Below, piece by piece: positions 9,559 through 61,138 of a stretch of 64,000 bases of DNA. Numbering within the stretch: the first letter of the stretch is position 1; each line of letters begins with the position of its first letter. The stretch comes from Deltaproteobacteria bacterium TL4 (GTDB taxonomy: Bacteria > SAR324 > NAC60-12): the NCBI GenBank assembly GCA_051382335.1, contig JBBCAX010000034.1, positions 20,512 to 84,511 on the forward strand. The letters run 5' to 3'. The notes beneath the pieces were generated by a model. The model was not told where the DNA came from. It did not search any database and worked only from the letters and a program-made list of their open reading frames with translations. Both the position numbers and the translations under genes were made by a program.

Positions 9559-10842
9559 TTATAATTTTGCAATAGCGTTTCTTAAACCTTCGGCTGTTTT
9601 TTCCAGATCCTCATCGGTATGAGCCGTTGAAACAAATAAAGATTCGAAAGCTGAAGGCGCAATGTAAATGCCTTCCAAAAGGAGATTCTTAAAAAGTTTC
9701 GCAAACAATTTGGTATCGGTTTTCAGCGCTTCATCATAATTAGAAATCGGTTTATCTGAGATAAAAAATCCGAACATTCCTCCTGCATGATGAGTTTGAA
9801 CAGGAATTCCGGATTTAGAAAACGCAGATTGAATTTCATGAATCAACCATGAGGTCTTCCTTCCAAGCTCTGCATAGACTCCGTCTTTTTTGAGTATCTC
9901 CAAGGTTTTAATGCCTGCGGCAACGGCGATAGGATTTCCTGAAAGTGTTCCTGCCTGATAAACAGGCCCTACAGGAGCCACTTGCAACATGATATCCTGG
10001 CGTCCGCCATAGGCGCCCACAGGAAGTCCGCCTCCAATCACCTTGCCAAAAGTGCTGAGATCCGGCATCACTTGAAGTAAGGCTTGAGCGCCTCCAAAAT
10101 CGACACGAAATCCGGTCATGACTTCATCTAAAATCAGAACGATTCCCTCGCGGTCACAGACTTCTCTCAGACCTCTTATAAATTTCAGATTAGGAGCAAT
10201 CATTCCCATATTACCGGGAATCGGTTCCAGAATGATAGCGGCAATTTCTCCGGAATGTTGATCCACAAGGTTCGTAACGGACTCAAGATCATTAAATTTT
10301 GCGAGTAATGTGGATTCCACAAAGGCCGCAGGGACTCCCGCAGAATCCGGAGTTCCTAAAGTTGTCGCACCCGAACCGGCTTTGACGAGTAAGAAATCAA
10401 CACTACCGTGATAGCAGCCTTCAAATTTAATGACTTTATCTCGCCCGGTATACCCACGAGCAACACGAATGGCACCCATTGTGGCTTCTGTTCCAGAGTT
10501 TACCAAACGTAACATTTCCACACTGGGTACCGCCTCCCGGACCATTTCCGCCAGTTGTATTTCCGCTTCAGTAGGAGCACCAAACGAAGTTCCATTCCGT
10601 AGCGCATGGGTGATGGCATGGAGGACTTCCTCGTGGCAATGTCCCAAAATGAGTGGTCCCCAAGATCCTACATAGTCAATAAACTCATTACCATCGACAT
10701 CATATATCTTAGACCCTTTTCCCCTTTCAATAAAAAGAGGAGTCATTCCGACTGATTTAAACGCACGAACGGGGCTATTCACCCCTCCAGGAAGTGATTG
10801 TTGTGCCCGCTCAAAAAGTTGAATAGATTTTGAAATTTGCAT
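9559..10842 (-). CDS. hemL: Glutamate-1-semialdehyde 2,1-aminomutase
   Basis: PGGVNSPVRAF, DYVGSWGP, NSGTEATM, DEVMTGFR, FGKVIGGGLPVGAYGG, QAGTLSGNP. Confidence 0.96.
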   Translation of the reverse strand: MQISKSIQLFERAQQSLPGGVNSPVRAFKSVGMTPLFIERGKGSKIYDVDGNEFIDYVGSWGPLILGHCHEEVLHAITHALRNGTSFGAPTEAEIQLAEMVREAVPSVEMLRLVNSGTEATMGAIRVARGYTGRDKVIKFEGCYHGSVDFLLVKAGSGATTLGTPDSAGVPAAFVESTLLAKFNDLESVTNLVDQHSGEIAAIILEPIPGNMGMIAPNLKFIRGLREVCDREGIVLILDEVMTGFRVDFGGAQALLQVMPDLSTFGKVIGGGLPVGAYGGRQDIMLQVAPVGPVYQAGTLSGNPIAVAAGIKTLEILKKDGVYAELGRKTSWLIHEIQSAFSKSGIPVQTHHAGGMFGFFISDKPISNYDEALKTDTKLFAKLFKNLLLEGIYIAPSAFESLFVSTAHTDEDLEKTAEGLRNAIAKL

Positions 10843-28695: not shown

Positions 28696-29484
28696 TCAGA
28701 AGGTTTTGGGCGCAAAGTTGGCGGGAGTTTCGAGGGAAAACACTTCATCATGGATGGAGGCCAGATACAGCCCCGATTGCAGAACGTCCTCTCTCACGGA
28801 AGACTCAGTATCCACATAAACGACCATTCCCCGGATTGTTTTGTCGGAAAACTCCGGAAAAAACATCCGGAAGTTTTTCAGGATCTCCAGCGTTTGGTCC
28901 AGATCCCGTTGTTCCAGACGACTTTTGACTTCAATCACATACAACTCATTCACCGTGCCATTCGCATAAGCCACCGCATCCACTTCCATGTTCTTTCCCT
29001 CTTTTCTTTTGCGGAGACGGGTCAGAAAGGTATCCATCCCAAAGCGCTCTGTCATGATTTTCGAGATGGAGGGAAACGCCATCCCTTCGGTGAAGGTGCC
29101 AAACTTGTTATTCAAGCCTCCGATATTTTTTGACAATTCTTTGACGATACGGTCGGTTTTCTCAAATTTTTCTTTGAGTTGCTGGTCGGTTTCCTTGAGC
29201 TGTCGGTCGGTTTCCGCTGTTTTTTCCTTCATCTCACGGCTGGTTTCTTTGAGCTGTCGATCGGTTTCAGTAAATTTTTCCTTGAGTTGCCGGTCGGTTT
29301 CCGCTGTTTTTTCCTTCATCTCACGGCTGGTTTCCTTGAGTTGTTGGTCGGTTTCCTTGAGTTGTCGGTCGGTTTCCGCTGTTTTTTCCTTCATCTCACG
29401 GCTGGTTTCCTTGAGTTGACGGTCGGTTTCTTTTTGGGCGATTGCCAAGCTGGCAACCAGTTCTTTGAGTTCTTGATCGGTCAT
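28696..29484 (-). CDS. Coiled-coil repeat protein with C-terminal PD-(D/E)XK nuclease-like domain (DUF3782-like)
   Basis: Tandem ETDRQLKE repeats, NKFGTFTE, MEVDAV...VIEVKS. Confidence 0.8.
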   Translation of the reverse strand: MTDQELKELVASLAIAQKETDRQLKETSREMKEKTAETDRQLKETDQQLKETSREMKEKTAETDRQLKEKFTETDRQLKETSREMKEKTAETDRQLKETDQQLKEKFEKTDRIVKELSKNIGGLNNKFGTFTEGMAFPSISKIMTERFGMDTFLTRLRKRKEGKNMEVDAVAYANGTVNELYVIEVKSRLEQRDLDQTLEILKNFRMFFPEFSDKTIRGMVVYVDTESSVREDVLQSGLYLASIHDEVFSLETPANFAPKTF

Positions 29485-29972: not shown

Positions 29973-30113
29973 TCACAAGCCTCCTCGGATACAGCGAACA
30001 TAGTTGTTATAGGACTTATCGTAGTAGCTCACGTAGCCATCGCTGAAGCCCACGCTCCACGCGTAGCTCGTGTCACCGGCGTAAGTAGTAGACGACCAAT
30101 AGCCCGAGGAATT
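29973..30113 (-). repeat. DGR variable region VR-A
   Basis: Colinear with VR-B and VR-C. Variable codons are TAC/AGC/GGC/GAT-type NNY, and the 3' end GGAGGCTTGTGA is shared. Confidence 0.75.
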
Positions 30114-30293
30114 GGTATTAGGAAAATAGGTCGAATTAATAGCAGGACTATAGACAGAATAATCAACAATGGATTGCAGTTCGTTTTTACTGGGGAGCCT
30201 CCAATCGCTTTTACCACCTAAACTCAAGCCTTCACAATAAGTCAAGGCGGCTTCCCAATTACGAGCGGTGTTATCATCTTCTTTTTGCCATAA
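29973..30293 (-). pseudogene. 5'-truncated DUF1566/Lcl domain carrying DGR variable region VR-A
   Basis: In frame directly after the TGA of the 30294-35780 gene (VRCVR*LWQKEDDNTARNW). About 94% identical to 36969-37287 outside the VR by hand count. Lacks the FTDN.DGTVTD start of the domain. Confidence 0.75.
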
Positions 30294-33200
30294 TCATCGA
30301 ACACACCGAACATACATGCTTATATTATTCTCCGATTTTACTTCTCCATTTTGAAAATTAACAAACCATACTATTTCGACTGTATTTTTACTAATAGGAT
30401 CGTAGTCATAATAATTAGTTTTGGACCAATAGTATGAAGATTTTGTATTAGGAAAAAATGAAGTATTGATTGCTGGATTGTAGTTTAAGTCATCCGTGAT
30501 AGACTCCAACTCTTTGATGTTTGGAAGACGCCAATCAGTTTTTCCACCCTGACTCAAATTTTCGCAATAGCTCAACGCATTTCCACGATTCTTTAATGTA
30601 TTGTCATCTTCTTTTTGCCACATCAGTTCAGAAAAATTGTCAGTAATAGTTCCATCACCATTATCTAAAAATGAGGAATCCGTATTTGAGTAACCGCGAA
30701 CACACCTCACACCATGTTTAAATCCCCATGACCGACTACCGACGGAACCATCTCTGAAAGAAACATCCCAAGCCAAATCCTGATTATTCGCATAACTTGT
30801 ATTTGACCAATAATTACCGGTATCTAAAAAGTTGAAATAAGATTCATCGTATCTTAATTCTTTGTTATAAATAATAATTCGAATCAGTTCCTTTTTGGAG
30901 GGCACTCGCCAATCTGAGTAGAACGATAATTCGAGGTTTTCACAATAAGTTACAGCATCCGACATTGTTGGTGTATTTGTAGCATTTGTTTTTTGCCACA
31001 CCAGTCCTGTGACATTATCAGTAACGGTTCCATCTTTATTGTCTGTATAAGACATTCTATTCTCTGAAGCATCTGAGAGCTCTTGTTCTGCTTTCGGAAT
31101 ATGTCCTGTAAAATCGTGAATTGCTTCACTAACCCAAGGACCTTCGCCATTGTTGTTTTTTGTAAAAACAAGTAAGTGGGTTGATCCAGAAGGAATGGAC
31201 GTGTTCGTATCAAAATCAAAACTTAGGTTACTTCCAGAAGCGGCAAGAGTTGTGATCGGAGTGCTGTTTACTTTTGTAGTCGCACTTGATCCCCAATAAA
31301 GTACATAATGTGTAATATCGCTCTCATATCTGGCTTTTGTAATTGTTACGCTTCCGCCTAACTCTCCAGCATCGGTATCTGTATCAACAAATACCACGCT
31401 GGTGGCATTATGAGATGGAACACCAACATCAACAACAACACCATTATGTCCTCCTCTAACACACTTGACATGATTCGTGTCGGTCTTCTCTGAACGCTCC
31501 ACAAAACCATAGTAAAAGTCCACAAACCAAGATTGAGTCATTCCAGCGGTAAATATGAATGTTGTAGATGACCAGTATTTTGATGAATAAGTGTTAGGAA
31601 AATAAGTAGATTCGATTGCAGGATTAAATTCGGAGTCATTAGTTATGGACTCCAATTCTTTAATGTTTGGAAGACGCCAATCCGTTTTCCCACCCAGACT
31701 TAAGTTTTCGCAATAACTTAAAGATTCCCCCCATGATATTTTTGTATAGTAATCGTTTTCTTTCTGCCACATCAACCCTGAAAGGTTATCTGTAACAGTA
31801 CCATCACTATTATCGGTAAACAACGTAAACTCACTTACTCCATTGCGAACACACCGAACATAGTTATTCAGCGACATATGTGAGCTATATACAACTCCGG
31901 AACCAAAATCAATAACCCAGGCTGTATTGCTAAATGCAATATAGTTAGAAGCTGTCCAATAATAATCAGAAGACTTCGTTTTACTGAAATAGGCCTCATT
32001 GATGCTGGAATTATAAGTCCTGTAATTCACAATACGCATCAACGTTTTTTTACTTGGCAGTTGCCAATCAGAAAAGGATGCCAAGTTCAGGCTATTACAA
32101 TAATCTTGAGCTTCTGACCATGTTCTTTTAGTGTTATCATCTTCCTTTTGCCATATTAATCCTGTGATATTATCGGTAATAGTTCCATCATCATTATCAG
32201 TATATGAAGGTTCATTGAGTAAGTAATCGTGGTCTTCACCCAAAGTTGAGGTATAGGAAATGGTTTGTCCTGTATCAGGAATATAATATCCATGACGACC
32301 ATTATCAAAAATGATCACATTAACACCTCTTGCCATTTCGCCCCTAGTGTTTTTGGTAAAAACGAGTAAATGGGTTGATCCAGATGGAATTGATGTATTA
32401 TCAAAATCAAAAGTCTGGTTATTTCCTGTAGCGGATAAAGTGGAAATTGGGATACTATTTGCTTTTGTTGTCGTATCTGATCCCCAATAAAGTACATAAT
32501 GAGTAATATTGCTTTCGTCACTGGCTTTTTTAATTGTTACGCGTCCTCCTAATTCTCCAACATCAGTATCTGTATCTAAAAAAGCTACACTATTTGCAGT
32601 ATGAACAGGAAAACTAACATTGCTTTCACCACTACCACGGACACAACGGACATAACATTCATTATTGCTTTTCCAATGGTCATGAACCTCTCCGTTGCTG
32701 AAATTCACATGCCATGAGTATAGGCGGATGTTGTTGGCTCTGGTAGTGGAAGAGCAATACTTATCTGATTTTGTATTTATGAAATATGTGGTATTTATCA
32801 CTGGATTGTATTTTGAGTCATCCGTGATTGACTCCAACTCTTTAATGTTTGGAAGACGCCAATCCGTTTCTCCTCCCAGACTCAAATTTTCACAATAACT
32901 CAGCGAGCTTTCCCCATTTTTTTTTGTGTTGTCATCTTCTTTTTGCCACATCAATTCTGAAAAATTATCTGTAATGGTACCATCACCATTATCATTATAA
33001 GAAAAAGTTAAATTTGAGGGTTTACGAACACATTTTATATACATCTCGGAAGTCTTACTGCCTGAAAATACATATCCATAACCTAATGAAACAGCAAAAA
33101 CATTATTTGAATCGTTAGAATCAACGGTTGAAGACCAAACAGCGGAGGATACGGAAGTGGGAAAAAAGATTGTATCAATGGCAGGCTCGTACATTCCATA

Positions 33201-35780
33201 ATTTATTATACGCATGAGTTCTTTCTTAGTTGGAAGACGCCAATCTGAATAAGACGCCAAGGTTAAATTGGCACAATAGCTTTCCGAAGCGTATGACCAA
33301 GGTTCTCTAAAGCTATTTTCACCTTGTTGCCACATTAATCCTGTTATCTTATCTGTGATAGTTCCGTCACTATTATCTATGTAAGAAAGTTCGTTATATA
33401 AATAATCATGATCTTCTCCAAACGTTTGTGTATAACCGATCGTTTGTCCAGTATCAGGAATATGATAACCGTAAATACCAACATCAACAATAGGAGCGTT
33501 TGCACATATCCTATTTTCACCTTCATCATTTTCGGTGAAAACTAACAGGTGGGTTACTCCTGAGGGAATCGGTGTATTAGCATCAAAACTGTATGATAAA
33601 TTACCTCCTGTTTTTGCAATGGAGCTAATTGCGGTAGAACTTTGTTTCGTGGTACTATTAATCCCCCAATAGAGAACGTAGTGGGTTATATCACTTTCAT
33701 CACTGGCTTTGAAAATTCTTACTTCTCCACTCAGTCTCCGAACATTAATATCGGTGTCGGTAAAGGTTACACTGAGGTCTGTGCAGGGTGAAACGGCTTC
33801 AATGATAACCACGTTGACCCCAGAGCTCATCTCTCCATCGGCATTTTTTGTAAATACCAAAAGGTGAGTCGCTTCTGATGGTATTGTTGTATTATTTGGA
33901 AAGGTATACGTTAAATTGCTTCCGGTTTTTTCTATAGTAGTAATTGGAGTAAGGCTTTGCTTGGAGGAACTACTCGATCCCCAGTAAAGAACGTAATGTG
34001 TAACATCGTTTTCGTCACTGGCCTTAGTCATTGTGACATCACCAGCTAATTGGCTGCCATCTAAATCAGTATCAGTAAAAGCCACACTAGAGGCGGCACT
34101 TGTGGGAACTCCCAAGTCAGTAATAGCCACGTTGATCCCCGTGCCCATTTCGCCATCAGTATTTTTTGTAAACACCAGTAAATGGGTTGCTCCTGAGGGA
34201 ATGGAGGTATCCAAGCTAAATGGGTGAGTCACATTACTTCCTGTTACAGCCAGGGAGGTGATTTCGGATGTACTTTGTTTTGCTGTAGAACTCGTCCCCC
34301 AGTAAAGAACGTAATGTGTAACATCGCTTTCGTCACTGGCTTTGATAATCGTTATATCGCCAGCTAACTGGCCGCCATCGAGATCAGTATCATTGAAGAT
34401 CACACTTACTGCGGCGTTTATTGGAACCCCTAAGTCAGTAATAGCCACGTTGATCCCAGTGCCCATTTCTCCATCGGCATTTTTTGTAAATACCAAAAGA
34501 TGAGTCGCTTCTGATGGTATTGTTGTATTATTTGGAAAGGTATACGTTAAATTGCTTCCGGTTTTTTCTATAGTAGTAATTGGAGTAAGGCTTTGCTTGG
34601 AGGAACTACTCGATCCCCAGTAAAGAACGTAATGTGTAACATCGTTTTCGTCACTGGCTTTAGTGACTGCTACATTTCCAGCCAACTTTCCACCCTCAAA
34701 GTCTGTATCTGTGAAGGACATACTGATCGCACTATGAGTTGGTACTCCTAAATCAGTAATAGCCACATTCACTCCTATCCCCATCTCTCCATTTGCGTTT
34801 TTAGTAAATACCAAAAGGTGAGTCGCTTCTGATGGTATTGTTGTATTATCTGGGAAGGTATGCGTTAAATTGCTTCCGGTTTTAACGATAGTAGAAATTG
34901 GTTTAGCACCTTGCTTCTTGTTAGAACTCGTCCCCCAGTAAAGAACGTAATGTGTAACATCGCTTTCGTCACTGGCTTTAGTAATTGACAGAAATCCTCC
35001 AAGTTCACCTCCATCTGGATCAAGATCAGTATAAGAAACGCTAACTGCGGCATTTTGAGGGGGGGGATGATTATCTGAATTCTGTTCTATTTCAGTAATG
35101 CTGTTATTAAGGTGAGCGGTTGCTTCTTCACTGGAAACAAGGGTTTGTTTTCCACCTGTCAACGCTGTTTCTTTTGAGACAGCTATAACCACTGACTGTA
35201 CCGTATTATCCGCTTCAAAAATTTCAGGAGGTACGTTAAAGTTTATCGTTTCCGCAACGTTCTCAATGGCGATAACAACAGCGGGAGTGATCGTAATCCC
35301 ATTTGTAGGATCGCCATCATCATCCAGAGTTTGTAGAAACCGCGCAATATTGGTGACGGCCTGATTGGATGCGTCGGTTGCGTTTTCTACTAGGTCTACA
35401 GGTGTAACAGTAGATTTTGCTTCCCCTTCACCAAGTACAATGCCTCCTACCGAAAATTGGACTCTGTTTCCTTCCTCGTAATAAAAGGTACCATATTCAT
35501 CAGTATTTCCTCTTTGTCCTCCTGAGACATAGACCACTCCATCCACCGGACTGTCTAAAAAGATGCCTTTCAGGATTTCAAGAGAGGCCTCTTGTTGTGA
35601 TGAAGTGTCCGAGTCCTCAGGGTGAGTCGCTTCTGAATTATCTGTTTCTTTGCTTTCTTCTATATTAGAAGTCCCTTTTTTTTCAGAATCATCTTTTCCT
35701 GATGTGTTATCACAACCATGAGTAAAGATCATACTTCCACAGAAAGTGAAAATTATAATTAGTATATTTATGTTTTTCAT
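30294..35780 (-). CDS. Large surface lipoprotein: 7 copies of a ~110-aa beta repeat plus 6 DUF1566/Lcl domains
   Basis: Lipobox-like IFTHGC; 7x FTDTD..GG.LAG..TKASDE..VTHYVLYWG; 6x DN.DGT.TD..GL.WQK..WRLP..EL..VRCVR. Confidence 0.88.
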   Translation of the reverse strand: MKNINILIIIFTFCGSMIFTHGCDNTSGKDDSEKKGTSNIEESKETDNSEATHPEDSDTSSQQEASLEILKGIFLDSPVDGVVYVSGGQRGNTDEYGTFYYEEGNRVQFSVGGIVLGEGEAKSTVTPVDLVENATDASNQAVTNIARFLQTLDDDGDPTNGITITPAVVIAIENVAETINFNVPPEIFEADNTVQSVVIAVSKETALTGGKQTLVSSEEATAHLNNSITEIEQNSDNHPPPQNAAVSVSYTDLDPDGGELGGFLSITKASDESDVTHYVLYWGTSSNKKQGAKPISTIVKTGSNLTHTFPDNTTIPSEATHLLVFTKNANGEMGIGVNVAITDLGVPTHSAISMSFTDTDFEGGKLAGNVAVTKASDENDVTHYVLYWGSSSSSKQSLTPITTIEKTGSNLTYTFPNNTTIPSEATHLLVFTKNADGEMGTGINVAITDLGVPINAAVSVIFNDTDLDGGQLAGDITIIKASDESDVTHYVLYWGTSSTAKQSTSEITSLAVTGSNVTHPFSLDTSIPSGATHLLVFTKNTDGEMGTGINVAITDLGVPTSAASSVAFTDTDLDGSQLAGDVTMTKASDENDVTHYVLYWGSSSSSKQSLTPITTIEKTGSNLTYTFPNNTTIPSEATHLLVFTKNADGEMSSGVNVVIIEAVSPCTDLSVTFTDTDINVRRLSGEVRIFKASDESDITHYVLYWGINSTTKQSSTAISSIAKTGGNLSYSFDANTPIPSGVTHLLVFTENDEGENRICANAPIVDVGIYGYHIPDTGQTIGYTQTFGEDHDYLYNELSYIDNSDGTITDKITGLMWQQGENSFREPWSYASESYCANLTLASYSDWRLPTKKELMRIINYGMYEPAIDTIFFPTSVSSAVWSSTVDSNDSNNVFAVSLGYGYVFSGSKTSEMYIKCVRKPSNLTFSYNDNGDGTITDNFSELMWQKEDDNTKKNGESSLSYCENLSLGGETDWRLPNIKELESITDDSKYNPVINTTYFINTKSDKYCSSTTRANNIRLYSWHVNFSNGEVHDHWKSNNECYVRCVRGSGESNVSFPVHTANSVAFLDTDTDVGELGGRVTIKKASDESNITHYVLYWGSDTTTKANSIPISTLSATGNNQTFDFDNTSIPSGSTHLLVFTKNTRGEMARGVNVIIFDNGRHGYYIPDTGQTISYTSTLGEDHDYLLNEPSYTDNDDGTITDNITGLIWQKEDDNTKRTWSEAQDYCNSLNLASFSDWQLPSKKTLMRIVNYRTYNSSINEAYFSKTKSSDYYWTASNYIAFSNTAWVIDFGSGVVYSSHMSLNNYVRCVRNGVSEFTLFTDNSDGTVTDNLSGLMWQKENDYYTKISWGESLSYCENLSLGGKTDWRLPNIKELESITNDSEFNPAIESTYFPNTYSSKYWSSTTFIFTAGMTQSWFVDFYYGFVERSEKTDTNHVKCVRGGHNGVVVDVGVPSHNATSVVFVDTDTDAGELGGSVTITKARYESDITHYVLYWGSSATTKVNSTPITTLAASGSNLSFDFDTNTSIPSGSTHLLVFTKNNNGEGPWVSEAIHDFTGHIPKAEQELSDASENRMSYTDNKDGTVTDNVTGLVWQKTNATNTPTMSDAVTYCENLELSFYSDWRVPSKKELIRIIIYNKELRYDESYFNFLDTGNYWSNTSYANNQDLAWDVSFRDGSVGSRSWGFKHGVRCVRGYSNTDSSFLDNGDGTITDNFSELMWQKEDDNTLKNRGNALSYCENLSQGGKTDWRLPNIKELESITDDLNYNPAINTSFFPNTKSSYYWSKTNYYDYDPISKNTVEIVWFVNFQNGEVKSENNISMYVRCVR

Positions 35781-35956
35781 ATTTCTACTTTGATTTGGCT
35801 TATTATTTTCAATAAAATCCCCCACCGCATACGGTCTCGCTAACGCAAAATATTCGGTATGCGAAAACGGGGTGTTTACGGACTAAACTCCCAAGAGAGT
35901 GGGGTACTAACCCAATGCTGTGCAATAAAAATTAATTCTTTTTTTATTAAATAAGT

Positions 35957-36899: not shown

Positions 36900-36968
36900 C
36901 GACAAGGGGCAAGCCCCTGTACCCCGCTTTTTTAAATAATCAAATTCCCAAATAATCAAATAATCAAC
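36900..36968 (-). promoter_or_regulatory. Putative DGR target-recognition region downstream of VR-B (TTATTTGA repeats plus hairpin)
   Basis: The stop is followed by repeated (G)ATTATTT units and then an AGGGG-CTTG-CCCCT hairpin. A near-identical copy follows VR-A; VR-C has similar repeats but no matching hairpin. Confidence 0.55.
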
Positions 36969-37109
36969 TCACAAGCCTCCTCGGACGCAACGGACATAGT
37001 TCGTATTAGTCTTATAGTAGCCGTCCACGTAACCATTGTAGAAGTACACGTACCACGCATAGCTCGTATAGCTAGCGCTGGTAGTGGACGACCAATAGTT
37101 CGACGACTT
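36969..37109 (-). repeat. DGR variable region VR-B
   Basis: 36969-37142 aligns with 39528-39701 with 16 mismatches, all at positions 1-2 of NNY codons. Confidence 0.9.
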
Positions 37110-37403
37110 GGTATTAGGAAAATAGGTTGAATTAATGGCAGGACTATAGACAGAATAATCAACAATGGATTGCAGTTCGTTTTTACTGGGGAGCCGCCAA
37201 TCGGTTCTGCCACCTAAAGTCAAGCCTTCACAATAAGTCAAGGCGGTTTCCCAATTGCGAGCGGTGTTATCATCTGCTTTTTGCCATATCAATCCTGATT
37301 CATTATCGGTTACTGTTCCATCTGCATTGTCTGTAAAAGAAGCGGCATAAACCACGTTGACCAAAAATAAAAATAGCCCCATCCAACAGATATATTTTTT
37401 CAT
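36969..37403 (-). CDS. Secreted single-domain DUF1566/Lcl protein, DGR target (VR-B)
   Basis: Signal peptide plus a complete Lcl domain; AGGAG RBS; lies directly downstream of the RT. Confidence 0.9.
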   Translation of the reverse strand: MKKYICWMGLFLFLVNVVYAASFTDNADGTVTDNESGLIWQKADDNTARNWETALTYCEGLTLGGRTDWRLPSKNELQSIVDYSVYSPAINSTYFPNTKSSNYWSSTTSASYTSYAWYVYFYNGYVDGYYKTNTNYVRCVRGGL

Positions 37404-37429
37404 TTTCTTCTCCTTTTCAAAGTTTTTTA

Positions 37430-38848
37430 TTAATTCAAGTGTTCTTGTTTATTGGCAGGAAACAACACTTTTTCGGTGATGACTCGTTTCTTTAAACCTG
37501 AACTGTAATACCCCTCTTCATCAACGACAATGTACGAGTAGCCATGCGCTAATATTCGCTTTTTGAAATGTTTTAACAATCTTTTGGGAAATCCGCATTG
37601 TCCTCGAAATCCTCGCTTTCCTTCTTCCATTTTCAGATTTAATAATTTCGAAGCCTGTATCGCCCTTTCGTCATATAATTCATAGTATTGACCCACCTGA
37701 AAAAAAATGAAAAATGTTTTGTAACGACCAGAAAACCAATAATATTGGTTTTTAAATTTTTTTGGAATATAAGGGGGTTCATAGAGAGGACGTAACTGAT
37801 TTTGTTTATCCAATAAAAACAGATGGTTCAACCAAGGATTTTTTCCCCAAATAGCTTGGGTCAATTGAGAGGCATCAGCGTGTTTAAAGTGTCCAATGTA
37901 AGAAGCCAGTGTTTGTCGAACAGCGTTTCTGTTTTCCAAAGACAAATCAATCATAACAGACTGTAACACTTCTGAGACCTCATCGGAGGGGGGTGTAGCC
38001 GAAACACAACTAATAAATGTTTTACTTTGTTTTATTGACGGCCTATCCCCCTGTCTTTTTATTTTGTTTTGAAAAACAATTTGTTTTTCAAGAGAGATGA
38101 GTTTCAGCTTCATGTTACTCACAACCCTGTTCCGAACAAGGGTATAACCGGGTCTGACAATATATCCCAAAAAATCAGACCCTTCACTCACTCGTTTTAG
38201 GATCACTCCAGGTTTCAAGGTCAAAGTCAGTTTTTGGTTGAGAAACACTTCGATAGACTCTTTCATGTGGAACAAGCGTTCTTTTGAGGGGTCTAGTAGA
38301 ATAAAATCGTCCATATACCTCACGTAAAACTGGCATTTTAGGCGGTGTTTTACGTATTGATCCAGCTCATTGAGATAGATATTAGCAAAAAACTGAGAAG
38401 TTAAGTTACCAATGGGCAAGCCTTTCCCTGGTAAAGTATGAAAGAGCGACTTATGAGGTGGAACCCTATCTAACAAGTCAGGGACACCTCGATAAGTGTA
38501 GTTTTCTATACAGGGATGTTGAAGAATTATCTTTGTCATTTGTAACAACGATTCCTCTTTTAAATGCTTTTGAATGATATCAAGCAGGATTTCCCGATCA
38601 ATACTCATAAAAAAACTCCGTATATCCAACTGTAGAAACCATGCGGTCACTTTCCCGCTTTTTGTGACACGAAGCATAAAGGAACGTAACCGCTCAACCG
38701 CAGCATGAGTTCCCTTGTTTTTTCTACAGGCGTAAGAATCATCAATAAACTTTGGTTCCCAAATTTGCTCCAAATGAGGAACCAGCAAATGATGAATAAC
38801 TCTGTCTCTAAAGTCCGCTGCGAAAACTTCTCTGAGTTTTGGTTTTCC
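37430..38848 (-). CDS. DGR reverse transcriptase with C-terminal MutS domain-I fusion; N-terminus missing
   Basis: KPKLREVFAADFRDRVIHH, SYACRKNKGTH, LDIRSFF, GLPIGNLTSQFFANIYLNELD, YVRYMDDF, DFLGY; C-terminal FFQVGQYYELYDERA..ASKLLNL..CGFP. An in-frame TGA at 38849-38851 caps the frame. Confidence 0.9.
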   Translation of the reverse strand, partial: GKPKLREVFAADFRDRVIHHLLVPHLEQIWEPKFIDDSYACRKNKGTHAAVERLRSFMLRVTKSGKVTAWFLQLDIRSFFMSIDREILLDIIQKHLKEESLLQMTKIILQHPCIENYTYRGVPDLLDRVPPHKSLFHTLPGKGLPIGNLTSQFFANIYLNELDQYVKHRLKCQFYVRYMDDFILLDPSKERLFHMKESIEVFLNQKLTLTLKPGVILKRVSEGSDFLGYIVRPGYTLVRNRVVSNMKLKLISLEKQIVFQNKIKRQGDRPSIKQSKTFISCVSATPPSDEVSEVLQSVMIDLSLENRNAVRQTLASYIGHFKHADASQLTQAIWGKNPWLNHLFLLDKQNQLRPLYEPPYIPKKFKNQYYWFSGRYKTFFIFFQVGQYYELYDERAIQASKLLNLKMEEGKRGFRGQCGFPKRLLKHFKKRILAHGYSYIVVDEEGYYSSGLKKRVITEKVLFPANKQEHLN

Positions 38849-39060
38849 TCACTGCAATCCCGTAATTGGGTCAATGCCTGGTATTTTTCAAATTGAGAGT
38901 TTGCTTGAATGACCAACGTCACCAATTTTCGGGACAAATTCCGAAGATCCTGCCCCAAGGCGTATTTATGGGAGCGAGGAAAATCTTTTACAATTTGTTC
39001 AGTCAAAACCGCTAACTCCATTGTTTTTTTATAAAGGGGTAAGTTTTCGTAATAAGCCAT
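38847..39060 (-). pseudogene. avd: Avd-like four-helix-bundle accessory protein, 3'-truncated (ORF reads on out of frame into the RT to 38647)
   Basis: LPLYKK..L..IVKDFPRSHKYALGQDLR resembles Avd. After LRDCSEE the DNA is RT coding sequence in another frame. Confidence 0.75.
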
Positions 39061-39380
39061 TATGTGGAAGCCTTAAGTCGAATGACCTCAGAAACAATTC
39101 GGGTCTTGTTTTCGTCCTGAAATGCAATCGCCACAGACTGTCCAGCTCGTAATAGTTTGCCTATATACGCATCCAGTCCTGATTTGGGAAAGCCTCCTGT
39201 CACATAGGGTTTTTCAGGGGTTCCCCCCATTTTTAATTTCAGACCTGTCAGCTGTGATAGCGTTTTAGCGTCTTCATTCATCAACTGCATGAAAGCACCT
39301 ACCTGCATCAGCAGGATGGTATCAGGTTCTTTTGTTTTAAGGTCTTCATATTGTAAAACTAATTTCTCTGAGTTCATCAT
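39060..39380 (-). CDS. Stand-alone MutS domain-I-like protein (MSL-type DGR accessory gene)
   Basis: QYEDLK..EPDTILLMQVGAFMQLMNEDA..LSQLTGLKL..GFP..LDAYIGKLLRAGQSVAI. Its stop overlaps the avd start (TAATG). Confidence 0.82.
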   Translation of the reverse strand: MMNSEKLVLQYEDLKTKEPDTILLMQVGAFMQLMNEDAKTLSQLTGLKLKMGGTPEKPYVTGGFPKSGLDAYIGKLLRAGQSVAIAFQDENKTRIVSEVIRLKAST

Positions 39381-39527
39381 AAGTCTTTCTCTTTCAAATT
39401 GTATTGATTCCTTTAATTTATGGGAATTCCCCCATTTTTCAGAGCTATCGTCAAAATGTAAAAAAAAATTTTCAGGCTCCGCCATTTTAAAAAAATAATC
39501 AAATTTCCAAATAACCAAATAACCGAC

Positions 39528-39668
39528 TCACAAGCCTCCTCGGACGCAACGGACATAGTACGTATTAGTCTTATCGTAGCCGTACACGTGACCATAGTAG
39601 AAGTTCACGCTCCACGCAGAGCTCGTACCGTAAGCGTAGGTAGTGGACGACCAATAGTACGACGACTT
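39528..39668 (-). repeat. DGR variable region VR-C
   Basis: 3' end of the large lipoprotein gene; differs from VR-B only at NNY positions 1-2. Confidence 0.9.
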
Positions 39669-42600
39669 GGTATTAGGAAAATAGGTTGAATTAATGGCAG
39701 GGTTCACAAGCGCGTTATTGACGATCAACATTAGTTCTTTTACTGTAGGGAGTCGCCAGTCTGAATGAGAACCCAGTGTCAATGCACTACAATAACTCCC
39801 AGCATTTGACCATGTACGTGTGCTATTATCGTCTTCCTTTTGCCACATTAAACCAGTTACGTTATCCGTAATAGTTCCGTTCCCATTGTAGGTATAGGAG
39901 GGTGGATTAATACTATAATCGTGATCTTCACCAAAGGTCGTAGTATAGGAAGTCGTTTGTCCTGTGTCAGGAATACAACTTGGGCAGATATCGGCGATTT
40001 TCATACTCACTCCTGTTGTCATTTCAACAGTGTTATTTTGTGTAAAGACCAGTAAGTGGGTGGCTCCGGTAGGCAGTGAAGTATTTGCTGAAAAGGTATG
40101 CGTTACATTGGAACCGGTTGCCGCCAACGTAGCAATAGCGGTTTGCCCACTCAGTTTGGTGCTGGCACCTGAACCCCAGTAGAGGGCGTAGTGAGTCACA
40201 AAAGTTTCATCAGTAGCTTTGGTGATGGTAACAGCACCAGCTAATTCATTTTTGTTTCCGTCCGTATCCGTGAATGAGACACTAACAGCAGTAAATGGTT
40301 GATCACCAATAGTAACATTGACCCCAGTACTCATTTCCGCTCCGGAATTTTGTGTAAAGACCAGTAAGTGGGTGGCTCCTGTCGGCAGTGAGGTGTTTTC
40401 TGAAATGGTATGCGTGACATTGGAACCGGTTGCCGCTAAAGTAGCAATAGCGGTTTGTCCACTGAGTTTGGTAGTGGCATTTGAGCCCCAATAGAGAGCA
40501 TAGTGAGAAATATAGGTTTCATCAGTGGATTTGGTGATAGTAACCGTTCCTGCCAGTTCGTTTTGATTACGGTCAGTATCCGTGAACGCAACACTGACCG
40601 CTGTTTCAGTTGGTACTGGTGGCGCTAGATTTCCAGAGGCGTTATTGTCCGTGATTTCGCCACTGACGCCTTCTGTCATTTCGCCATAAGTGTTGTAAGT
40701 ATAGACTAAAAAATGCGTAGCTCTTGGTGGTTTCCAGGTGTTGAGAGGCAGATTATATTTTAATTCGTCATTGGTTTTCGCAACCGTTGTCAACAGGGAG
40801 AGTTTGGTCGTGGCGTCCGTTCCCCAATACACTTTATATCCGGTGATATGGCTTTCATCGCTGGCTTTGATGATCGCGATTTTTCCAGCGACCTGATTTC
40901 CCTCCGCGTCAAAATCCACAAAACTGACACCTCCCGCTTTGAGGGTGGGGGGTTGAGAATCCGCAAGTTTAACACTGACTGGTGTTAAATATTCCCCTTC
41001 TCCATATAAGGTGTAGACAAGTAGATGTGTTACTCCTTGTGGAATGGCAGTGTTCGGGGGAAGGAGATAAGAAAGATTGGAGCCTGTTTTAGAAAGTTGG
41101 GTAATCAGTGTGGTTTTTGTATTCGCGTCCGTTCCCCAATAAAGGTTGTAAGCAATTAGTTCCGATTCATCCGGGACTTTTGAAATGGTGAGTGTCCCGC
41201 CAATTTCTCCGACTTGAGGATCAGAATCGATCATGGTAATGGTTTGCGGACGTCGAAAAGTCGCTGTAATGGAATCATTTACCGGCCCTGTCATATTTCC
41301 AACCGCGTCTTTAAACCAGGCATAAAGGGTTTTTGTGCCATTACTGTAGGGAAAGGTATAAGCGACATTTTGGGAAAAGGCCTTTGTTGATGTCACTGAG
41401 ATCCATCCACTTGCGTTAAGTGCTGGGGTTTGTGAGTTTTCTGAAAGATAATATCCGGTAACGCCAATATTGTCCTGAGCGGCAAGGGTTAAGGTGACAC
41501 TGTCATCAAAGGTAGTCGTTTGTCCATTATTAATCGAAATTGTAGCCGCGGAAGGTGAGCTTGGATCGGTGTTTATTGTGAAACTTCCTCCGCTGACCGG
41601 AGTGCTTTGAACATCATTTCCCGCCAAATCCTTCGCGTTTTGAAGGGTGACAGCAGCCGTTCCGTTTACTGTTCCAACTGTGTGAACGTATTGGTAAACC
41701 GTGGCACTTACTTTAGTCATTGGTTTTGAAATGGTCTGGGAAGGTTCCTGGATGCGGAGGGAAGGAACAGGACTATCGCTGATTTGCTCGTTAAAAGTGG
41801 CGGTGATGGTGAGGGTTTCTCCGCCTGTTAGAGTCTGGTTGATGGAATAGGTAATTTTTGCGGTAGGGGCGGTGGTGTCGATGGTGATTGCTTTTGATCC
41901 GGTTTTTGACCAAAACCCTTCAATATTTTCCTCGACATAGAGCGTGTGTGTGCCTTCTGTTAAATTGGTTGCTGGTGTAAAGAACGTTTCTAACGTTTCG
42001 GTCGCGTCTTCATTCAAATTACTGTGATCCAATTTGTAGCGGTAAAGTCCCGAACCATTCGTCACAAGAGGAGTCCAACTCCAGGGGGGTTTAACATTTT
42101 TATTAGGTGATATCCCCGCGACAGTGGGCGAAGTATTAAGGGGAAGAGGGTTGCTTACCAGATCTTTGGTAGAAGTTTTGGACAAAGGGATTGGTTTTTT
42201 ATAATCCAGAAAATGAGGCTCAACGTAATACTCAATGGTTTTTTGATCTTGACTATAAAACGCGATATGAGCTCTGCCAAAACGGTCTAAAGCCAAAGCG
42301 CTGTATTTACCAATATCGTTAAACCCAACTCTTGGGACTTCAATTCTCCAGCGATTGCTCAATCCAAGGGCTTCTCCTCGTAAGCGAATGGCGTAACGAA
42401 GTTCTTTTTTTCCTGGATGATAATAAGAAACACGGGCGGCGTTAAAGCGGTCAACGGCAAAGCCCAAAACATTATCCTGAATACTGCCTAACGATTCAAT
42501 GACAGAAGACAACCAGCTTCCATCCTGTTTAATGGTGTGAATAAGGCTTCCCCCTTTCATGTAAACTGCTTGGGGACGACCGTCCTGATCAATTCGAAGG

Positions 42601-44758
42601 TGAAGGCCATAACCCGCCTCTTCAGAAGCATCAACGACTTCAATTTCCCATTTATTAGAGTTGGTTTCAGAAGCTCCATAAAACAAATGCTGATTCATTC
42701 TAAAGAGGATTCTGGGTTCTCCCTTCGCATTGTAGGTTAAATCGTTATGAGTGCCTTTTTCTCCCACCACAACCGTTGAAATATTCCATGTTTCTCTCAA
42801 GGCGTCTGAGGACGTCGCATACTTTAAGGTTTTGCTATCTTTGTAATATAAAAGCCCAAGTAACCCTGTGTTTCCTGATGCCATACTGATTGACGCCTGA
42901 TTAAAGGAGGCTGAGAGGGTGACCTCATCAAGCTCTCTTTTTACCCAATGTCCACTTCCTTGCTGAATCCAGCAACTGAGTTTGTTCCCTTCAATGGCAC
43001 AAGTACTTGGAAGAACATTTAAGGGGTCTATTTTGATTTTACTGAATTTTCCATAGTCTCCGTTTCCATCCAGGGCTTCACTGTTCCATATTCCTTTGAA
43101 AAAAGTATAAATGATTTTTTTGTACTGGATATCATAGGAGCTGATATTGATTTCATCCTGATTAAGAGCCAGAGAGACATCGGTTCCAAAGTCGCTATCA
43201 TTAATGGGGTATCGTGACGGGCGGTTTGACCTCAATGGTGGCAGGCGTCGCGTAAATTTCGTCACAACTGACATTTAGCAGCGTATATCCTTTCTTTACC
43301 CCTTTGAATAGGGCGGACTCAGTGTTGGACGATTGTTTGCTGACATAGCGGTCATCGAATTCCCACTTAAGTCCGTCTTTACAATCAAGAGAGGTTGGGG
43401 CGCCTCGTGTATCGGTGGCATACACATTAAAAATACGAGTCCCTTCAACGTCGAGTGATAAGCGTATGGGTGAAATCGCAATGGATTGAATATCGGAAAA
43501 ACTTTCGCCCACTTGAACAGACGCTTGCAGTGTGGTTCCTTGAAAAGACATGGTTGCCGTAATACTGGCAGGACCACTGGAAAGTTTGGAAATTTCGCCT
43601 CGATCATCAATTTTAACGATGTCATCATCACTGCTTTTCCAATCCACTTCAATAAAATCTTCTTGACTAAGATCATTAATCAGAAGATTTTCAGTGGCTT
43701 TGTCAGTCACCCTGGCTTTAAATCCGACTTGTCCATTTTTAGTGAGTTTGACGATTGGAGGGGAGAGGGTCAAACAATAAGTGTCATTACATTCGCTGGA
43801 TGAAATTTCCGTCACTTTTTTTATTACGCAGGAGTTCCCTTCAAACTCGTAACCTTCGTTACAGGAGATAATTTGACACGCGCCAAAATCGGTCCAAATA
43901 CCATCGTTATCACAGGTTTTGGAGCGTTCACCTGTTCCATTCTGAATGGTACAGCTAACGACTTCCTTGGCATTTGCAGTACATTCCTTTACTGTTGTCA
44001 CGTCAGCCACACAGGTACTTCCAGAAGCAGTAAAACCATTGTCACAGGAAGTAATCTGGCAAGCCCCCAATTCAGACCAACTTTCGTCGCTTTTACAGGT
44101 CTTTGTTCTTTGGCCGTTGCCATTCAGCACCGTACATGGGACGTTGGCTGTTTCATTGGGAGTACATTCCTGAGTGGTCGTATCTTGAGCGCAATCGCCT
44201 TCATCATAATTGAAGAGGGAACAATTTAACGAGCTATGGCAGGTTTTGTCTCCTATGAGGCTTTCTGTGATACAGCCTCCGAGACAATCTGTTATTTCAT
44301 TAATAGCGCACCCAGGTTCCTCTTCAATTTTTTTTGCCAAACAAGCATTTCCGGACAATTCAAAGCCATCGTCACAAACTGTCACTTGGCAAGTAGTGAG
44401 CTCAGACCAACTTCCATCACTTTTACAGGTTTTCGATTGTTCTCCTTATTCCATTAAGCATGGGACATGACACTTTTTCTATCTTATCGAGAGTACATTT
44501 TGATGGGGTTGGAACCGTGTTCCCTGTATCACTGGAACTATCACTAGTCCCTGCATTTTCAACGGGAATGGTTGTATTGTCTGCCGTCGTTGTGCTGGTC
44601 TCTTCGTTAGTTGAGGTTTCGTTTGATTCGGTAGGAGTTGGTGAAGAATCACCTCCAGAAGGAGAATCGTCACAAGAGAGGAAAAACAGGCCAAGGATCA
44701 TCAAGAAGATAAGACAATAGATTTTAATGGATATATTCTTTATTTGTATATTTTTCAT
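39528..44758 (-). pseudogene. Large lipoprotein DGR target (~1740 aa if repaired): Cys-rich repeats, Ig-like, propeller-like, 4 beta repeats, C-terminal Lcl with VR-C; two frameshifts
   Basis: ORFs 44423-44758 (lipobox FLSC), 43201-44385 and 39528-43274 join on removing one base at ~44446 (NGI|GEQSKTCKSDG) and one at 43206-43209 (VTIP|INDSDFG). Confidence 0.75.
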
Positions 44759-60736: not shown

Positions 60737-60775
60737 GGTAACGTGTTAGGGTTTGATCCCATTTCTTACCCCTAG

Positions 60776-60911
60776 GAGGCTGTCCGAGAATGGGTTGTAG
60801 GGTGCGCTTAAGCGAAGCGAGCGCACCAAAAAGCTTGCGTCCCCTTGTTTTGGTGCGCTCGCTTCGCTTAAGCAGCACCCTACTTTTAAATACCTATTCC
60901 CGGACAGCCTC
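60776..60911. mobile_element. MITE with GAGGCTGTCCG ends flanked by CTAG, enclosing an inverted REP pair
   Basis: CTAG|GAGGCTGTCCG...CGGACAGCCTC|CTAG; internal GTAGGGTGCGCTTAAGCGAAGCGAGCGCACC and its near-inverse. Confidence 0.75.
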
Positions 60912-61138
60912 CTAGGCTCATGTCAAAACTCCGCCTTGTAGTGGAGTAAGGCCGAGCCGTGAGAACCCACATTACGAGACAGAGTCTTGTAACAGGAAGG
61001 TAATGACGGTAACCGAAGTTAGGATCAAGCCCGAATATCAGTAGAGTCAGACGCAGAGGTGTAGGACTTTTGTGGATACTGACCTGAGATTATATCCTTG
61101 GATGTACTCTCATTTTCAAAAACAAAAAGGAGGACACT

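Follow-up and report, generated by a model that had tools for sequence, protein, structure and literature searches.

An incomplete DGR cassette with two MutS domain-I modules and targets probably rewritten in trans

Why would the cassette of a diversity-generating retroelement (DGR) carry MutS domain I twice, once fused in frame to the C-terminus of its reverse transcriptase (RT) and once as a small stand-alone gene (msl) coupled to avd? The locus that raises this question lies on the minus strand of the 64-kb stretch of DNA analysed here (the window), and its modules may bear on how mismatch-rich DGR cDNA survives host repair. Our overall explanation combines a dead cassette, targets mutagenised in trans and two partly redundant helper modules; taken as a whole, belief and doubt in it are evenly balanced.

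Layout of the locus and loss of its central part

A preliminary description gave the minus-strand order as target with VR-C, msl, avd, RT::MutS-I and target with VR-B, an order that gene calls and domain profiles recovered. Comparisons below are with a sister cassette on another contig of the same assembly (C135 of genome G000), which has the same layout, is intact and, at the corresponding place, is ~615 bp longer, TR included.

39528..43274, minus strand: upstream target gene, 1248 aa, C-terminal Lcl_C (C-type-lectin-type) domain (PF07603, E 2e-36)
39545..39667, minus strand: VR-C core, 123 nt; against the C135 TR, 0/80 non-A and 17/43 A positions changed
39060..39380, minus strand: msl, stand-alone MutS domain I, 106 aa, intact, F-M-Q in place of Phe-X-Glu (PF01624)
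38845..39060, minus strand: avd 5' remnant, ~72 of ~123 codons (PF22296 positions 5-59 of 107 only)
38843..38851, minus strand: deletion junction (approximate), ~615 bp absent by comparison with C135
37430..38848, minus strand: RT remnant, 472 open codons, YMDD intact, N-terminal ~71 residues gone
37448..37759, minus strand: MutS domain I, in-frame fusion 3' of the RT thumb (Y-Y-E ... GFP; PF01624)
36969..37403, minus strand: downstream target gene, 144 aa, one Lcl_C domain (PF07603, E 2e-40)
36986..37108, minus strand: VR-B core, 123 nt; against the C135 TR, 0/80 non-A and 13/43 A positions changed
36901..36985, minus strand: VR-B 3' end (IMH-like, unlike the TR 3' end), TTATTTG repeats and a short GC hairpin
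29973..30245, minus strand: VR-A, in a 5'-truncated copy of target B to which its flanks are 95% identical

Lcl_C (PF07603) was formerly named DUF1566. The downstream target has a hydrophobic N-terminus that resembles a signal peptide by eye. The hairpin 3' of VR-B has a z of -2.1 (4/200 shuffles equally stable); for those 3' of VR-C and VR-A, shuffles folded no worse.

The RT carries the DGR-type motifs LPIGNLTSQ and YMDD, as first described, and belongs to the DGR clade. Its C135 paralogue matches Bordetella bRT best by both sequence and fold (model against BPP-1 bRT, PDB 8UB7: E 6e-26, TM 0.89 over target). Group II intron and retron RTs scored lower, and such an identity was rejected.

The window cassette is a deletion product, which the preliminary description overlooked. 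By comparison with C135 it has lost the 3' half of avd, the TR and the N-terminus of the RT. The reading frame of avd is lost near codon 72; from there the ORF carries on out of frame through RT DNA as far as 38647. Just residues 1-71 of C135 Avd are matched. The RT frame begins PKLREVF directly after a stop, with TTG at 38788 as the earliest in-frame start codon. The missing residues probably correspond to the N-terminal extension that contacts Avd in the Bordetella ribonucleoprotein (RNP). No TR was found in the 64-kb window, and the sole TR of C135 type in the assembly is at G000:C135:19500-19622. With half of avd, the TR and the RT start lost, the window copy cannot be a working cassette; its identity as a DGR is supported.

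An intact sister and the source of target variation

The C135 cassette combines an avd gene, a TR, a full-length RT and targets that carry VRs. Its Avd matches NF033474 at E 1e-9 and 38 bits, under the 80-bit cut-off. The RT start codon sits within the 3' end of the TR, leaving no non-coding spacer on that side. The two cassettes are old paralogues: their RT cores are 66% identical, and genes on the window contig (C34) and C135 are near synonymous saturation (pS 0.67-0.87), with dS not computable for RT, tail and msl. The comparison of the upstream targets, misaligned at 20% identity, was left out of these figures.

Each window target has its VR at the 3' end of the C-type-lectin-type domain (PF07603). 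VR-B and VR-C match the C135 TR at all 80/80 non-adenine sites, and changes are confined to TR adenines. The same TR fits seven VRs on five contigs with 0-1 non-A mismatch each, and TRs of related cassettes all (56/56) differ from it at at least eight sites where neither base is A. This match, together with the loss of the TR and part of the enzyme, suggests that the intact sister rewrites the window targets in trans. We judge it highly likely that the window cassette is broken and served in this way. VR-A differs from the C135 TR at 16/80 non-A sites despite its 95% identical flanks (Fisher p 7e-5); it was therefore ruled out as a current target of this TR and was likely written by another template. 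In a relative's genome that holds cassettes L035, L037 and L039 and has TR-less copies, the pattern is less clear-cut: VR and TR differ at 3-16 non-A sites, counted over stretches in which flanks were included. The window copy is a dead cassette, of interest chiefly as an example of targets that an old paralogue has probably taken over in trans.

An assembly error could imitate this picture, if the cell had a complete cassette here whose own TR matched the C135 one exactly. The assembly is split into 445 contigs and TRs are repetitive; the junction is defined by the assembled sequence. Against this, the junction lies within unique coding DNA, away from repeat ends, and an independent TR this diverged would be expected to differ at at least eight non-A sites. 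No second copy of the stretch absent from the window was found in the assembly, and no orphan contig has it. Comparable deletions of TR plus RT start occur in 12/75 related cassettes, ~7 of them independent, and three of the 12 share one 5.7-Mb contig, beside an intact copy. An assembly error is accordingly very improbable.

The two modules and their distribution

Both regions had been read as MutS domain I, and PF01624 matches each above its cut-off of 20.6 (msl: E 1.4e-15, 57.9 bits; RT C-terminus: E 1.7e-11, 44.8 bits). The match covers the first ~100 MutS model positions, with no clamp, lever or ATPase domains. The claimed coupling of msl to avd was borne out, as the msl stop overlaps the avd ATG. 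The msl subfamily (104-106 aa) consists of domain I alone; the C135 orthologue model folds as such, and in a PDB sequence search with the msl profile the E38Q mutant 1WBD came out on top. The RT module shares its reading frame with the RT and lies in a C-terminal extension, which a high-confidence model (pLDDT 93.8, pTM 0.86) places after the thumb. Proteins are conserved although synonymous sites are saturated (msl, pN 0.28 against pS 0.80; tail, pN 0.35 against pS 0.87). The tail is strongly basic (median pI ~10, against ~5 for host domain I) and msl is near neutral (median 7.9).

The motifs originally quoted, Y-Y-E in the RT and F-M-Q in msl, are both present, and the C135 tail reads F-C-E. 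In a biased sample, with genome loci chosen partly by tail motif and metagenome loci by msl motifs including Q, msl keeps the Phe and lacks the Glu in 88/88 cases and the full-length tails of RTs without msl keep the Glu in 46/46. A real asymmetry therefore persists, aromatic-x-Glu in the tail and Phe-x-Gln in msl. The proposed complementarity did not survive: Y-x-E occurs in 17 of those 46 tails, whose cassettes showed no msl in the DNA in view. The Phe-to-Tyr change does not follow the presence of msl, and a co-evolved Y-Y-E/F-M-Q pair was rejected.

Within the same sample, msl is present at 1/36 informative fused-RT genome loci. Where at least 500 nt lie downstream of msl, avd is next in 51/65. 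The double layout is also kept in other cassettes, and those of the window, C135, G059 and L102 have retained the two modules at full length. In this phylum, where many genomes are incomplete, msl was found in 2/88 genomes (G000 and G059; E<=1e-25) and the RT in 3/61 (E<=1e-20); no msl relative was confirmed among 80 pattern matches in viral contigs. Across DGRs as a whole, both modules are dispensable.

In a quick MutS-I tree of 100 columns, msl forms its own clade (100), sister to host MutS (96) and apart from RT tails; profile scores likewise place msl nearer MutS. That msl arose when a duplicate of the adjacent tail split off was rejected on these grounds, with moderate support. RTs beside this msl subfamily nearly always hold at least a remnant tail (homology 99%). 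In msl-bearing cassettes 24/28 tails are shortened and PF01624 matches 4/28; the eroded tails retain the aromatic-W-E strand and a terminal Arg and have lost the middle. Since 23 eroded tails fall in one clade of the quick trees, the state of msl present and tail eroded represents a single evolutionary event. Erosion in the main msl clade suggests redundancy, and the lineage offers a natural series of tail only, tail with msl, and msl with eroded tail.

Possible roles of the modules

In Bacteroides ovatus, deletion of mutS is reported to raise DGR mutagenesis 5-10-fold. Host MutS thus cuts DGR output, at least in that system, and engineered DGRs include dominant-negative MutL for this reason. 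G000 encodes both MutS and MutL. We tentatively propose, at somewhat less than even confidence, that the modules are separately recruited, partly redundant duplex-binding helpers. Each would bind and hold the mismatch-rich duplex of cDNA and target, with the window targets mutagenised in trans by the intact C135 cassette, and host MutS would be kept off. Nucleic-acid binding by msl or tail, an anti-repair role and redundancy are all putative, and shielding of the heteroduplex from host repair is plausible. E38Q abolishes mismatch discrimination by MutS, according to a review. By analogy with this E. coli mutant, msl is predicted to bind duplex without mismatch discrimination, and the basic, RT-tethered tail to keep the mismatch contact.

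The affinity of such modules may be low, because MutS requires its clamp and ATPase to bend DNA and a domain I on its own has neither. Two observations tell against redundancy: it does not require the four cassettes with both modules full length to keep them so, and msl, having no Glu, is no like-for-like substitute for the tail.

The tail might instead mainly bind RNA or the RNA:cDNA hybrid within the RT RNP, where it would steady the DGR RNA or help synthesis to continue past A:N mispairs. On this view it would have nothing to do with host repair, and msl would be an optional Avd partner. The tail's basic character, unlike that of host domain I, fits this reading, as does the erosion that spares the aromatic-W-E strand and terminal Arg. 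So too does its modelled position after the thumb: the Bordetella RNP has spacer RNA wound around the thumb, and C135 has no non-coding spacer on the RT side. Against it, the strict Glu of full tails fits MutS-type mismatch read-out, although an RNA:cDNA mismatch could also use it, and Bordetella bRT is described as functioning without such a domain. We regard this alternative as rather unlikely.

More doubtful is the reading in which a single DGR lineage acquired MutS domain I on two occasions and uses the copies as a joint anti-mismatch-repair shield. An RT-tethered aromatic-x-Glu sensor would read the mismatches it had just made and Avd-coupled msl, a natural 'E38Q', would coat the duplex. 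C135 and G059 would represent the fully cooperative state, driving seven targets genome-wide, including those of the dead paralogue. An MSH6/MSH2-like asymmetric heterodimer of tail and msl, serving to recognise or shield the heteroduplex and close to the asymmetric unit of the preliminary description, is improbable. Motif asymmetry, the four cassettes with both modules full length and the near-constant remnant tail beside msl speak for it. However, (i) partners of an MSH2/MSH6-like dimer would be expected always to co-occur, and 35/36 informative fused-RT genome loci have no msl, so that an obligate pair is unsupported; (ii) Y-x-E is frequent in cassettes that lack msl, and the C135 tail reads F-C-E; (iii) the tail erodes where msl is long established; (iv) the translational coupling of msl is with avd rather than with the RT; (v) the modules lie on different branches of the MutS-I tree; and (vi) MutS itself dimerises through domains other than domain I. 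A complex prediction of C135 RT with C135 msl scored 0.00 against a mark of 0.32 and carries no weight either way on binding. That the modules are inert passengers, or that msl is a protein decoy for MutS/MutL and binds no nucleic acid, is barely credible. Dispensability across DGRs and the near-neutral pI of msl would suit it; the low pN relative to pS in both modules, the invariant stacking Phe and a subfamily reduced to domain I argue against it.

The separately recruited helpers that we favour could be probed in the compact, intact C135 cassette, which lets both modules be deleted singly or jointly. A native anti-repair module, if confirmed, would be useful in DGR-based directed evolution.

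Comparison with known systems

Domain I of E. coli and Taq MutS shares with these modules the fold (TM 0.85 to Taq MutS 1EWQ) and the strand that bears the Phe-X-Glu motif, here Y-Y-E, F-C-E or F-M-Q. The modules lack the connector, clamp, lever and ATPase domains; Glu38 of MutS is Gln in msl, and the tail, unlike the acidic host domain I, is basic. The BPP-1 DGR (bRT-Avd-RNA, PDB 8UB7) likewise needs Avd and TR RNA; as described with that structure, it differs in having no domain beyond the thumb, a 140-nt non-coding spacer and no msl. Degraded DGR loci served in trans are reported for Thiohalocapsa (Dore et al., 10.1101/2023.09.22.558884), where DGR4/5 of strain PB-PSB1 share the pattern of the window targets and C135. 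There, by that account, the loci are recent duplicates, whereas donor and recipient here are old paralogues.

Wu et al. 2018 (PMC5758913) include three DGR RTs with a C-terminal MutS_I motif (Table S1, rows 18, 27 and 28). As tabulated, these share with the present cassette the MutS_I tail, CLec2/DUF1566 targets and, in 2/3, the layout TG-AVD-TR-RT-TG; they list no MSL, which here lies between upstream target and avd, and they are not reduced as the window copy is. MSL-containing DGRs form 'Architecture D' of the same paper, and a Bacteroides Msl is treated in bioRxiv 10.1101/2024.11.15.621889. The window msl, a small stand-alone MutS-like gene by avd, is alike, including the frequent order TG-MSL-AVD-TR-RT; the MutS_I flag is in the RT of 0 of 15 MSL rows of Table S1 (16 are counted in the paper), unlike here. 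The double arrangement had been thought uncharacterised: each module is reported separately in Wu et al., and, as far as its tables go, not both in one cassette. No experimental test of MSL or RT tail was found in the literature searched. Compared by eye, published MSL keep the Phe and have lost the Glu in 8/8 rows, as msl does here; on the same by-eye comparison, msl here is a distinct 104-106-aa subfamily with domain I only and F-M-Q.

The window cassette and its intact paralogue

The features of the window cassette and its sister copy are:

39528-43274, minus strand: 1248-aa gene with a C-terminal Lcl_C domain (upstream target, VR-C)
39060-39380, minus strand: 106-aa gene (msl, stand-alone MutS domain I)
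between msl and the RT frame, minus strand: avd-like start
37430-38848, minus strand: RT frame
36969-37403, minus strand: 144-aa Lcl_C gene (downstream target, VR-B)
G000:C135, L001 5537-11787, minus strand: intact sister cassette

The 106-aa protein and the RT C-terminus (the tail) match Pfam MutS_I at 57.9 and 44.8 bits, both above the cut-off of 20.6 bits. Profile searches of the PDB return MutS for each, with the E. coli E38Q mutant (1WBD) as the best match for msl and Taq MutS for the tail. For the C135 msl orthologue, the predicted structure (pLDDT 95) reaches a TM of 0.85 when superposed on MutS domain I. The full C135 RT model (pLDDT 93.8) is closest in structure to the Bordetella DGR bRT, and its terminal domain shares helix and strand order with msl. 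Both MutS modules are therefore real and the RT is of the DGR type, as the preliminary description had it; what it missed is that the cassette is broken.

In the same genome, C135 carries an intact cassette in the order target, msl, avd, TR, RT::MutS-I, target. Relative to C135, the window has lost about 615 bp (the 3' half of avd, the TR and the RT start), a piece that is absent from all other contigs of the assembly. The window avd matches its paralogue over residues 1-71 only, then continues out of frame into RT DNA; the RT frame directly follows a stop and opens with the motif found from residue 72 onward in relatives. The loss is suggested to be recent, since the RT remnant runs for 472 codons without a stop or frameshift. 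In the Bordetella structure Avd is bound by the RT N-terminal extension and is required for activity; by analogy, the RT of the window very likely has no activity. The cassette in the window is thus a pseudogenised one.

Of the 75 related cassettes in which both an accessory gene and the thumb can be seen, 12 show comparable losses of TR and RT start (about seven once near-copies are merged). Three of the 12 share a single contig of 5.7 Mb with an intact copy. Such internal deletions, in which TR and RT start are gone and the flanking genes remain, recur at loci L014, L026, L035, L037, L039, L113, L123, L150/L152 and L161/L164/L165. The window also holds inverted repeats of 25-26 nt, nested and almost perfect (60771-60916), which may represent a REP-like or other small mobile element, and a 262-aa gene (28696-29484) with tandem charged repeats in both DNA and protein.

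Target repeats and probable homing in trans

Of the 43 adenines in the 123-nt C135 TR, 13 are changed in VR-B and 17 in VR-C, while none of the 80 other positions differs in either. The window and C135 cassettes are old paralogues (RT core identity 66%, pS about 0.8). Each of the 56 TRs of related cassettes (RT identity 50-67%) departs from the C135 TR at eight or more positions, not counting those with an A in either sequence. This pattern indicates that the window targets are probably served in trans; degraded DGR loci served in this way have already been described (10.1101/2023.09.22.558884). In an ungapped scan of the genome, seven VRs fit the C135 TR with at most one non-A mismatch. They are spread over five contigs: two on C135, two on C34 (the window's contig) and one each on C172, C187 and C53, the last three starting at 10229, 715 and 13201. 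Seven further sites have 10-20 such mismatches; these Lcl_C ends look like stale targets.

VR-A (29973-30245) duplicates target B in truncated form: its 257 flanking bases show 12 differences, whereas 16 of its 80 non-A VR sites differ (p 7e-5 versus flanks). It was probably written from a different template, possibly the lost TR of the window cassette, whose sequence it may retain. An 1843-aa gene (30294-35825) has six Lcl_C domains and repeats of about 106 aa in common with the 1248-aa target; no segment of it fits the C135 TR.

Distribution of the tail and msl

Two MutS-derived modules per cassette are a real feature of the lineage. Of the 78 loci retained from 326 relatives in a genome scan with an RT alignment, 59 are RT loci and the other 19 are ordinary MutS genes. 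The tail is present in 56 of the 59 RT loci, a count that is inflated because the tail motif was among the search words. A fixed pairing of tail and msl is not supported here, as msl is found in 1 of 36 genome loci with tail, avd and sufficient upstream DNA (L017; L007 and L091 are further entries for this cassette and do not add to the count).

From 168 relatives, a metagenome scan with an msl alignment retained 79 loci, near-duplicates included. Where there is room, the target lies immediately upstream of msl (50/59) and avd is next downstream (51/65). The RT thumb is reached in 33 loci, and the RTs mostly end in a shortened tail remnant. Pfam does not detect this remnant, but its homology to full tails has an HH probability of 99%, against 0.5% for the reversed control. 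In an alignment that excluded tails below 85 aa, duplicates and one tail cut by a contig end, 24 of the 28 tails from msl-bearing cassettes are shortened and four match PF01624. One msl cassette, L125, has a shorter tail that is still Pfam-positive. Two full-length modules in one cassette are rare, occurring in four cassettes from three sources in this data.

In a quick RT tree the window, C135, G059 (another genome) and L102 RTs nest among msl-less full-tail RTs (support 98), separate from the main msl clade. In a quick domain tree of 100 columns, msl is a single clade (100), next to host MutS (96), and 23 eroded tails form one clade (99). At L095, L129 and L159, msl of this subfamily has opposite-strand avd and RT genes as neighbours. 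The L095 and L129 RTs, both placed in the RT tree, are a distant branch, a hint that msl moves between DGR lineages. L019 (4693-5451) has two avd-like genes in tandem in a fused-RT cassette without msl. A second, unrelated DGR on G000:C153 (L002 117-5345), its genes labelled by eye, has a target, an HRDC-like ORF, an avd-like ORF, an RT of 341 aa that has no tail and, 3' of this RT, a TR rich in Asn codons.

Motifs, possible function and known systems

In the 46 tails for which no msl is in view, the Phe position holds F (28), Y (17) or K (1), and Glu is present in all. The 88 msl proteins all have Phe, and in place of Glu they carry Q (79), K (4), D (2), H (2) or R (1); both sets were partly chosen by these very motifs. 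Eight published MSL rows (Wu et al. 2018), inspected by eye, likewise keep F and lack E. The window Y-Y-E is an ordinary variant, since Y occurs in 17 of the 46 msl-less tails, and C135 combines F-C-E with F-M-Q. What survives of the earlier interpretation is that both modules are MutS domain I in a DGR; an obligate asymmetric, complementary pair is not supported by these motifs, the single msl locus among 36 or the eroded tails. According to a review, MutS Glu38Gln loses mismatch discrimination and Phe36Ala loses specific binding. Median pI is about 10 for tails (basic), 7.9 for msl (near neutral) and 5.0 for host domain I (acidic).

We propose that the C135 RT and Avd would make A-mutagenised cDNA that homes to VRs genome-wide, including the two in the window. 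The cDNA:VR duplex would be mismatch-rich, in a host that encodes full-length MutS and MutL; in Bacteroides, host MutS is reported to eliminate the majority of such DGR events. The simplest role for a MutS domain I lacking the ATPase would be to occupy the duplex without repair signalling, the tail while tethered to the RT and with mismatch read-out, msl alongside Avd and without discrimination. Tail-only cassettes exist, as do msl cassettes with eroded tails, which suggests overlapping function rather than a fixed pair, although tail erosion alongside msl is one evolutionary event. The main rival to duplex occupation is that the tail acts in the RNP, on RNA or RNA:cDNA.

The literature on DGRs with MutS, MutS-like or MutS_I, covered with few subscription papers and no bioRxiv supplements, yielded neither an account of the two modules together in a cassette nor a functional test of either. 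An 18-nt insertion-repair assay in PMC12875486, which does not present a MutS substrate, was unaffected by mutS deletion. Related sources are 10.1101/2024.11.15.621889, PMC8632793, PMC3848065, 10.64898/2026.07.21.739853 and 10.1101/2023.10.23.563531. Wu et al. 2018 count 16 DGRs with MSL and three RTs with a MutS_I tail; these three carry no MSL entry there, and 15 MSL rows of Table S1 have no MutS_I flag. What is new is the combination of two known DGR modules of putative function in one cassette. The cassette worth studying is C135, the window copy being pseudogenised. In C135 the RT start codon lies inside the TR 3' end so that, unlike BPP-1, it has no non-coding spacer between TR and RT.
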